The notes under the pieces are model-generated. The model was not told the DNA's origin and ran no database searches. It saw only the letters and a list, made by a program, of their open reading frames with translations. Below are positions 54,461 to 55,261 of a stretch of DNA of 64,000 bases, one piece after another. A program made the translations under genes and the position numbers. Source of the DNA: Bacteroidota bacterium (GTDB lineage: Bacteria > Bacteroidota > Bacteroidia > Bacteroidales > Dysgonomonadaceae); NCBI GenBank assembly GCA_023424395.1, contig JAFADY010000037.1, positions 1,647 through 65,646 of the forward strand. The letters are read 5' to 3'. The stretch's first letter is position 1. Each line of letters starts with the position of its first letter.

Positions 54461-55261
54461 ATGCACAAAAGACATACCGCCAGAGAAACGTATTTCAAAG
54501 AACTTGCCCAAACAAGTGAAAAATATTTCATTCCTTTCATTAAAAAACAGAAACCGATAACAGACAGACTTTCAATATTTGAAATTGGGTGCGGAGAAGG
54601 TGGCAACTTACTACCCTTCGCTAAACGCGGATGCAAGGTTACAGGAATTGATATATCCGAAACCCGAATAAAACAGGCTAACGATTTTTTTGCTTCCGAA
54701 AAAGCACAAGGTATTTTTCTTCTCAAAGATATTTTTTCGTATAACTCCCTAGCGGCAGAGAGAGAGAGAGAGAGAGAGAGAGAGAGATACGATATAATTA
54801 TCACTCACGATGTAATTGAGCATGTCCGCCAAAAAAAAGAATTGCTTGCCATAGCCGCTTCTTTATTGCATGCGCAAGGAAGCATTCACGTAGGATTTCC
54901 ACCGTGGCAGATGCCGTTTGGCGGACATCAGCAAATCGCAAAGGATAAATACGTTTCGCGCATTCCGTTCATTCATCTGCTTCCTACATTTTTGTACCAG
55001 AAAATACTAAAAAAAGTTGAAAATAAAGCTGTTATAGAAGAATTGTTAGATATAAAAAAGTGCGGGACAAGCATTGAATTGTTCAAAAAAACAGTAAGCG
55101 CGACTTGTTTAAACATATCCGATGAAGTGTTTTACTTTATTAATCCGCATTACGAAACAAAGTTCGGCTTAAAACCCCGAAAATTATGGACTGTAATTTC
55201 GCTCATTCCTTGGGTTCGGAATTTCTTTACAACTTCCTATTTCTGTATTTTGGCCAAATAA
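54461..55261 (+). CDS. class I SAM-dependent methyltransferase carried on an insertion in the uvrA 3' end
   Basis: SAM motif I is IFEIGCGEGGNL, with post-I GIDIS and YDIIITHDVIEHV. It contains an ERERERERER run encoded by (AG)15 and is visibly more AT-rich than uvrA. Confidence 0.8.
   Translation: MHKRHTARETYFKELAQTSEKYFIPFIKKQKPITDRLSIFEIGCGEGGNLLPFAKRGCKVTGIDISETRIKQANDFFASEKAQGIFLLKDIFSYNSLAAERERERERERYDIIITHDVIEHVRQKKELLAIAASLLHAQGSIHVGFPPWQMPFGGHQQIAKDKYVSRIPFIHLLPTFLYQKILKKVENKAVIEELLDIKKCGTSIELFKKTVSATCLNISDEVFYFINPHYETKFGLKPRKLWTVISLIPWVRNFFTTSYFCILAK
54757..54787 (+). repeat. (AG)15 dinucleotide microsatellite inside the methyltransferase CDS
   Basis: AGAG + 10xAG + AGAGAG + A, counted directly. 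It is read in frame as (Glu-Arg)x5. Confidence 0.95.

Follow-up and report, generated by a model that had tools for sequence, protein, structure and literature searches.

The window, by which we mean the whole 64-kb stretch of DNA analysed, carries uvrA (931 aa; 51626..54421, +; assigned from its ORF and its linkage in relatives) and, immediately downstream, an ORF of 266 aa (54461..55261, +) that we assign to the class I SAM-dependent methyltransferases from the ORF itself, Pfam, an AlphaFold2 (AF2) model and Foldseek. The present allele is in the full-length, or ON, frame. The -7 promoter element of Bacteroides has the consensus TAnnTTTG, and the octamer TACTTTTG (54437..54444, +), 17 nt upstream of the methyltransferase ATG, matches it. 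The octamer recurs at the matching place in L092, an orthologue described below, and this putative box suggests that the methyltransferase may be transcribed independently. Downstream, the gene is followed by a second copy of the end of uvrA. A repeat search found a 92-nt direct repeat whose copy 1 (54320..54411, +) is the 3' end of the functional uvrA and whose copy 2 (55353..55444, +), 90% identical, is an orphan remnant of the uvrA C-terminus. The remnant comprises 31 codons and has its own stop codon. Next to it we noticed a hairpin rich in G+C and bordered on either side by T/A runs (55452..55482, strand-neutral), a predicted terminator-like element that would serve both the uvrA/methyltransferase side and the convergent Laminin_G_3 gene. 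The G+C content of the methyltransferase gene (0.36-0.42) is somewhat under that of uvrA (0.44-0.50). Inverted repeats flanking the methyltransferase are limited to one 14-nt pair at chance level, and an Rfam scan of the window gave no matches.

Inside the methyltransferase ORF lies a perfect (AG)15.5 microsatellite (31 nt; 54757..54787, +; 100% matches), the proposed slippage site. Direct reading of the sequence and Tandem Repeats Finder agree on it, and both bear out the perfect 31-nt tract described in the initial annotation of this DNA. In the current frame it is read as ERERERERER, that is (ER)5, at residues 100-109, directly N-terminal to YDIIITHDVIEHV, as that annotation had also stated. 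Among 42 Tandem Repeats Finder rows for the window it is the sole period-2 array, and the next-longest dinucleotide runs have 4 units, so the remark that no other such tract occurs in the 64 kb holds. Homopolymers of at least 9 nt amount to one A9 and one T9 in the window, which contains no G or C run of at least 7 nt and no second frameshift-prone repeat in coding sequence. The rarity of long dinucleotide tracts, likewise claimed at the outset, extends to related DNA: across ~675 kb of Bacteroidales sequence from 95 related loci, runs of at least 6 units occur at 3 places only, namely the (AG) tract of the window, an (AC) tract in the same loop of a homologue, and an AT6 at a contig end. Because runs of this size are so rare in related DNA, (AG)15.5 lies far beyond chance. 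The cut-off used for dinucleotide repeats in the prediction of phase variation is at least 6 units (PMC6321876); here, 15.5 uninterrupted units, of a length that is not a multiple of 3, lie within a 266-codon ORF.

We simulated changes in tract length in silico. Gain or loss of one or two units yields products of 110-120 aa, and gain or loss of three units keeps the frame and the full length. The simulated frameshifts terminate 4-9 codons past the tract, with loss of motif IV and of the conserved C-terminal half. Two stop codons are involved: a TAA (54795..54797, +) is reached after +1 or -2 (also +4) units, giving a product of 110-114 aa, and a TGA (54817..54819, +) after -1 or +2 (also -4) units, giving one of 116-120 aa. 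In these simulations an intact, conserved protein is thus terminated prematurely upon unit gain or loss, in line with the truncation initially expected from a single-unit change.

The 266-aa product matches Pfam families Methyltransf_12, 23, 25, 31 and 11 above their cut-offs, and its NCBIfam matches are sub-threshold only. Among them, the UbiG equivalog model TIGR01983 scores 61.3 bits against a cut-off of 102.95, in a match confined to residues 29-143. Because this score falls below the curated cut-off, we rejected an identification as UbiG, although homologues carry this name in some sources. A profile search against PDB sequences matched the Rossmann core only (~positions 30-140), with phosphoethanolamine N-methyltransferases, protein lysine methyltransferases, UbiG and CmoM as partners, and returned no match in PDB sequences for the conserved C-terminal half. 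The AF2 model, built from an alignment of 91 homologues, has a mean pLDDT of 92.7; Foldseek pairs it best with UbiG, the plantazolicin methyltransferases (BpumL) and CmoM (TM ~0.55, probability 1.0). The protein has motif I (GxGxG), an acidic residue closing beta2 and the alternating beta/alpha fold, and G43, G45, G48 and D64 do not vary among 91 sequences. Domain matches and the predicted fold identify the protein as a class I Rossmann-fold SAM-dependent methyltransferase of small-molecule, UbiG-like type.

The family to which it belongs has 5983 homologues at E<=1e-5, nearly all from Bacteroidales (Bacteroides, Prevotella, Parabacteroides and others) and typically 257-260 aa long. Its strongly conserved C-terminal half, with FPxWQMPFGGHQQ, H172 and NPHYE.KF, is family-specific. 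Gene neighbourhoods differ across the family, with no conserved context; the sole recurrent neighbour, present at 20 of the 80 loci listed (L012-L091) and absent from the window, is a fusion of an ECF sigma factor with an outer-membrane barrel. This neighbour has an odd architecture of ~550 aa, in which ECF-type sigma-70 regions 2 and 4 are joined to an outer-membrane beta-barrel, and it lies directly upstream of the methyltransferase homologue on the same strand, for example at L057 2284-3936.

No DNA-methylase family of Pfam or NCBIfam matched the window protein, and both a target-recognition domain and restriction partner genes are absent. Among the best 60 PDB sequence matches and the top 50 fold matches, none is a DNA methyltransferase by name; those proteins are small-molecule, protein, lipid or RNA methyltransferases, or unnamed. 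Lacking DNA-methylase domain, target-recognition domain and restriction partner, the protein is not an enzyme of the phasevarion type. We rejected the phasevarion, or DNA-methyltransferase, reading on this domain and fold evidence; the gene's neighbours are uvrA and Laminin_G_3. Where the initial annotation had invoked phase-variable methyltransferases as its precedent, the assignment to the methyltransferases stood, but the enzyme is not of the DNA type and the phasevarion precedent is inapplicable.

The Glu-Arg run sits in the connection that leads from motif III, on the DIF strand, to motif IV, on the YDIIIxHDV strand. This connection measures 7-8 residues in ~150 full-length homologues, with few longer, and 17 residues in the window protein, the excess being the ER run, which has no counterpart among the ~150 full-length homologues. 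Since unrelated insertions of up to ~29 residues occupy the same loop in a few homologues (P0064, P0219), the loop tolerates changes in length. In the AF2 model, pLDDT falls to 62-67 only at residues ~91-110 and reaches 96-98 in the strands on either side (85-88 and 110-116); residues 94-104 are drawn as a helix, at low confidence. Because the low confidence is confined to the loop, the ON allele, which is the present in-frame one, plausibly encodes an enzyme that is functional and carries the run as an addition to a surface loop. Model and homologue insertions both agree with the tolerated surface loop that the initial annotation had proposed to look for. Homologues contain no conserved ER loop encoded by mixed codons, and the objection that such a loop would have raised falls away. 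Two uvrA-linked homologues, P0004 and P0014, have 11-residue loops encoded by purine-rich DNA without a repeat; the purine-rich loop DNA reads GACAGAGAAAGC in P0002 and ACAGAAAGTAGGAGT in P0004. The repeat-free loops of P0004 and P0014 would fit a site at which repeats arise and decay.

The nearest orthologue, L092, was reached through the ORF of an N-terminal fragment (P0130) and occupies the same locus in a related species. Its uvrA product is 97% identical in amino acids to that of the window (dS 0.87), and the region shares 83% DNA identity over 2 kb. At the exact position of the tract, L092 reads GT(AG)5.5CTGTGTG-TACGAT, a compound tract of 18 nt as against 31, and its gene is split exactly there into an ORF of 107 aa and one of 159 aa in another frame. 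The two halves are otherwise intact, this frameshift being the single one, and loss of one AG or one TG (2 nt) would bring back the full-length frame. L093, assembled independently, is the same sequence, and the pair is identical. Between the window and L092, dN/dS amounts to 0.14 for the half of the gene before the tract and to 0.17 for the half after it, values that indicate that both have been under purifying selection; the 0.17 found beyond the frameshift implies that the downstream half of L092 was under selection, and translated, until recently. In this comparison, which is one between species only, tract length and frame both differ, the window being in frame and L092/L093 out of frame.

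The two halves of the gene differ in their distance from L092: the upstream half (54461-54756) has a dS of 1.5 and 67% protein identity, and the downstream half (54788-55258) a dS of 0.6 and 80%, with uvrA at 0.87. This unequal divergence suggests a mosaic gene, with a possible recombination breakpoint near the repeat.

Linkage of uvrA and the methyltransferase is common to L092, L006 and L008-L011 (83-97% identity to the window in the uvrA protein), and is found in three other lineages besides the window's own. The dS of the methyltransferase against L092 (0.6-1.5) brackets the 0.87 of uvrA. Because linkage and dS are thus shared with relatives, the gene was inherited with uvrA and is no recent arrival, and we ruled out recent horizontal transfer as the main reading. 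The gene had initially been described as part of a horizontally inserted cassette. The 92-nt, 90% identical copy of the uvrA end that flanks it accords with this description; linkage and dS, however, say that any such event was not recent. A downstream copy of the uvrA tail is absent from the syntenic locus L008. The similarity of L092 to the window ends at 55356, and the uvrA remnant appears to be absent there. The 92-nt duplication is a true scar, left by a local rearrangement or insertion.

A second long tract occurs in P0003 (L002/L003), a homologue with 61% identity to the window protein. It is a perfect (AC)14.5 array of 29 nt in the same loop, read in frame as THTHTHTH, and it follows the same stop-codon and frame logic as the window tract. 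The genomic context is different from that of the window, the gene lying after an MscS-like gene. The two source contigs of P0003 show 100% identity over 1005 nt, so that stability cannot be judged from their having tracts of equal length. By a crude calculation with the background rate from the ~675 kb, ~0.015 chance dinucleotide runs would be expected in this ~40-nt loop over ~250 homologues. Taking (AG)15.5, (AC)14.5 and the decayed (AG)5.5(TG)3.5 together, we tentatively propose that a permissive loop has been colonised repeatedly by dinucleotide repeats, and that, if selected, these would amount to a convergent slippage switch.

We searched for further alleles by several routes. Scanning JGI metagenomes with the exact flanks of the tract, so as to catch alleles of different length, gave 0 matches. 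In a more generic scan of these metagenomes, the pattern was a [W][S]x7 run no more than 30 nt away from the YD...HDV motif; the window and related loci had served to validate it. It gave one match, in a non-homologous region and judged to be due to chance, and no further alleles. In a family-alignment scan of the genome collection, no tract was present among the 80 Bacteroidales loci listed, the window genome not being one of them. Using the N-terminal 109 aa as query for OFF-state fragments, we obtained 79 fragment ORFs, of which only P0130, from L092, is truncated at the repeat and none contains a dipeptide repeat. Set against the family consensus as a peptide, P0135 appears to carry an ordinary single-base frameshift or a sequencing error; P0125 is truncated, at the peptide level, at the YD motif. 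With the C-terminal 157 aa, the sole close fragment was P0200, again from L092. The exact window protein forms a singleton cluster. Cluster look-up, which returned singleton clusters, gave no in-frame length variants, and a second strain of the window species was not found in the protein clusters or the JGI metagenomes. The same protein stands on three contigs (NCBI and ENA), one of which was compared as DNA and has 0 mismatches in 19,540 nt against the window.

In Logan, the Laminin_G_3 protein (784 aa; 55500-57854, -) is recorded in a contig of 10-20 kb, and the methyltransferase and uvrA proteins are without a record. Either the 92-nt duplication or the repeat may interrupt the k=31 assembly; an interruption at the repeat could hint at length heterogeneity among reads.

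These observations lead us to favor the view that the (AG)15.5 tract is probably a hypermutable SSR that acts as a translational ON/OFF switch, that is a contingency locus, of the methyltransferase. In the present allele, the in-frame tract would add a 10-residue Glu-Arg insertion to the variable surface connection between beta3 and beta4, and the enzyme would presumably be made and active. Strand slippage during replication would add or remove 2-nt units, and the frame would shift unless the number of units gained or lost were divisible by three. The shifted frame would yield a fragment of 110-120 aa that lacks motif IV (HDVIEH), WQMPFGGHQQ and the NPHYE.KF half, until a further slip restored the frame. 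A high slippage rate, reversibility and selection for switching are elements of this scheme that we infer from sequence. The nearest orthologue, with its different tract and a frameshift at that very site, is in line with it. The contingency-locus interpretation of the initial annotation therefore keeps the support of the tract, its frame effects, L092 and the (AC) tract, and loses that of the DNA-methyltransferase precedent and of a recent insertion. The enzyme is predicted to be cytoplasmic and is itself no obvious surface determinant, which counts against a switch.

The alternative that survives best, although we consider it rather unlikely, is that the tract is a non-adaptive microsatellite: slippage would have expanded a purine-rich proto-repeat in a permissive loop, the gene would be dispensable, and the resulting mutational noise would end in a pseudogene, as in L092. 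A variable loop that accepts insertions of up to ~29 residues would accommodate such noise, and purine-rich loop DNA of the kind seen in P0002 and P0004 could seed a repeat; yet two independent pure tracts of 31 and 29 nt, with different sequences, occupy the same loop in genomes that otherwise all but lack runs of at least 6 units, and both long tracts are in frame. L092 is broken, its tract is short and impure, and the allele, instead of being in a reversible OFF state, may be a plain or fresh pseudogene. Against this stands the dN/dS of 0.14-0.17 on both sides of the tract, which argues that the gene has not been dispensable over evolutionary time. Tract-bearing alleles number only three among hundreds of homologues, which favors noise; an unselected 15-unit tract would, however, switch the gene anyway, so that the non-adaptive reading differs from a contingency locus on selection and not on mechanism.

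That the Glu-Arg run is itself a functional charged helix or spacer, in which in-frame length variation of +/-3 units would matter, appears improbable. Alternating E/R runs can form charged helices, and the AF2 model draws its low-confidence helix at residues 94-104, but the run is coded by a pure dinucleotide repeat rather than by mixed codons, and an ER-rich loop is conserved in no homologue. The other tract, in P0003, reads as chemically unrelated TH repeats, and 2/3 of slippage events would destroy the protein. We can practically discount an assembly or sequencing artefact, in which the tract length would be wrong or the sequence chimeric: the source is a MEGAHIT-style metagenome contig (k141_35041) and low-complexity repeats are error-prone, but 31 nt is far below the k-mer label of 141 and typical short reads, the tract is in frame in an otherwise intact conserved ORF, the three contigs from NCBI and ENA carry the same protein (one of them free of mismatches, as described above), and independent samples have analogous tracts at the matching codon position.

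Phase variation by slippage is textbook knowledge in Neisseria, Haemophilus, Campylobacter, Helicobacter and the mycoplasmas. In Helicobacter pylori, intragenic CT/AG tracts turn genes for outer-membrane proteins and LPS glycosyltransferases ON and OFF. Those tracts are usually found close to the 5' end of genes for surface proteins, in the part that encodes the signal peptide; the window tract, by contrast, sits in the middle of its gene and falls in a structural loop of an enzyme of cytoplasmic type.

The type III methyltransferase M.MmyCI of Mycoplasma mycoides subsp. capri has 12 AG repeats in its coding region (PMC3498834). M.MmyCI resembles the window gene in having an AG tract within a SAM-dependent methyltransferase, the repeat number determining early termination. 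It acts as an N6-adenine DNA methyltransferase and belongs to an R-M system of a Mollicute; the window enzyme, by contrast, is of the small-molecule class I type, is without R-M partner genes and lies in a Bacteroidales-type genome.

Core members of the Campylobacter phasome include SAM methyltransferases with polyG tracts (UbiE_3; Cj0170, 'probable 3-demethylubiquinone-9 3-methyltransferase') (PMC6321876). These UbiE/UbiG-like enzymes resemble that of the window in being non-DNA class I methyltransferases with an intragenic SSR switch, the likeness being one of fold (PMC6321876). Their repeat is a homopolymer, G7-13, whereas that of the window is a dinucleotide of 15.5 units (PMC6321876). Campylobacter, an epsilonproteobacterium, has dozens of such loci per genome, in contrast to the sole tract in the 64 kb of the window. 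Because the window enzyme is of the small-molecule type, the Campylobacter polyG methyltransferases are a closer precedent than the phasevarions.

Bacteroidales are known for phase variation by DNA inversion, through invertible promoters and shufflons (PMC7641763; PMC11868660). These systems belong to the same broad taxon as the window, and stochastic ON/OFF heterogeneity would result in either case; inversion, however, needs site-specific invertases and inverted repeats, an entirely different mechanism from that proposed here. Repeat slippage in Bacteroides has been raised merely as a possibility (PMC3090145). Switching by slippage is thus hardly documented in Bacteroidota, inversions being what the papers cited here on Bacteroides and Bacteroidales describe (PMC11868660; PMC7641763). 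The slippage mechanism itself is classical; the phylum is unusual for it, the enzyme family is uncharacterised, and the recurrence of differing dinucleotide repeats at one loop adds a further point of note.

A slippage switch, if true, would mean that Bacteroidota, which dominate gut and wastewater communities, have a second way of generating heterogeneous populations, and would make this uncharacterised methyltransferase family, with its ~6000 homologues, worth study. If the convergent switch also holds, it would be the first family of repeat-driven contingency genes in Bacteroidota, where phase variation is otherwise attributed to inversion, and the methylation product would be under fluctuating selection, for example by phage, host or a toxic substrate. 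The locus is usable as a strain-tracking marker. Tracts of this kind can also make genes seem 'broken' in MAG annotation, as with L092, which is called as two ORFs.

Numerous short tandem arrays of period 7 form a separate class of repeats in the window, at 26433-26478, 28014-28053, 29200-29232, 29445-29504, 33757-33840, 38794-38850, 40111-40175 and 47167-47214. Their units differ from array to array (for example AAATCGT/AAATCAT, AGAAGTT, TTGGGAT, TTGAACT, (CCAACTC)x7, (TATGAGT)x9 and ATTTTGG/ATTTACG). The arrays are essentially intergenic and often abut gene ends; the one at 38794-38850 touches the last base of the neighboring ORF. They are similar to the unexplained intergenic heptamer repeats of some Bacteroidetes, cyanobacteria and Beggiatoaceae (PMC4679880). 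By eye, we also noticed a heptamer array of this kind (TAATAAT / GCATAAT units) at ~316-360 of L002, in the spacer between the MscS-like gene and the methyltransferase homologue with the (AC)14.5 tract. Finally, the contig of the window also carries, ~700 nt past the window's 3' end, a gene for an IS200-like Y1 transposase (L001 20241-20690).
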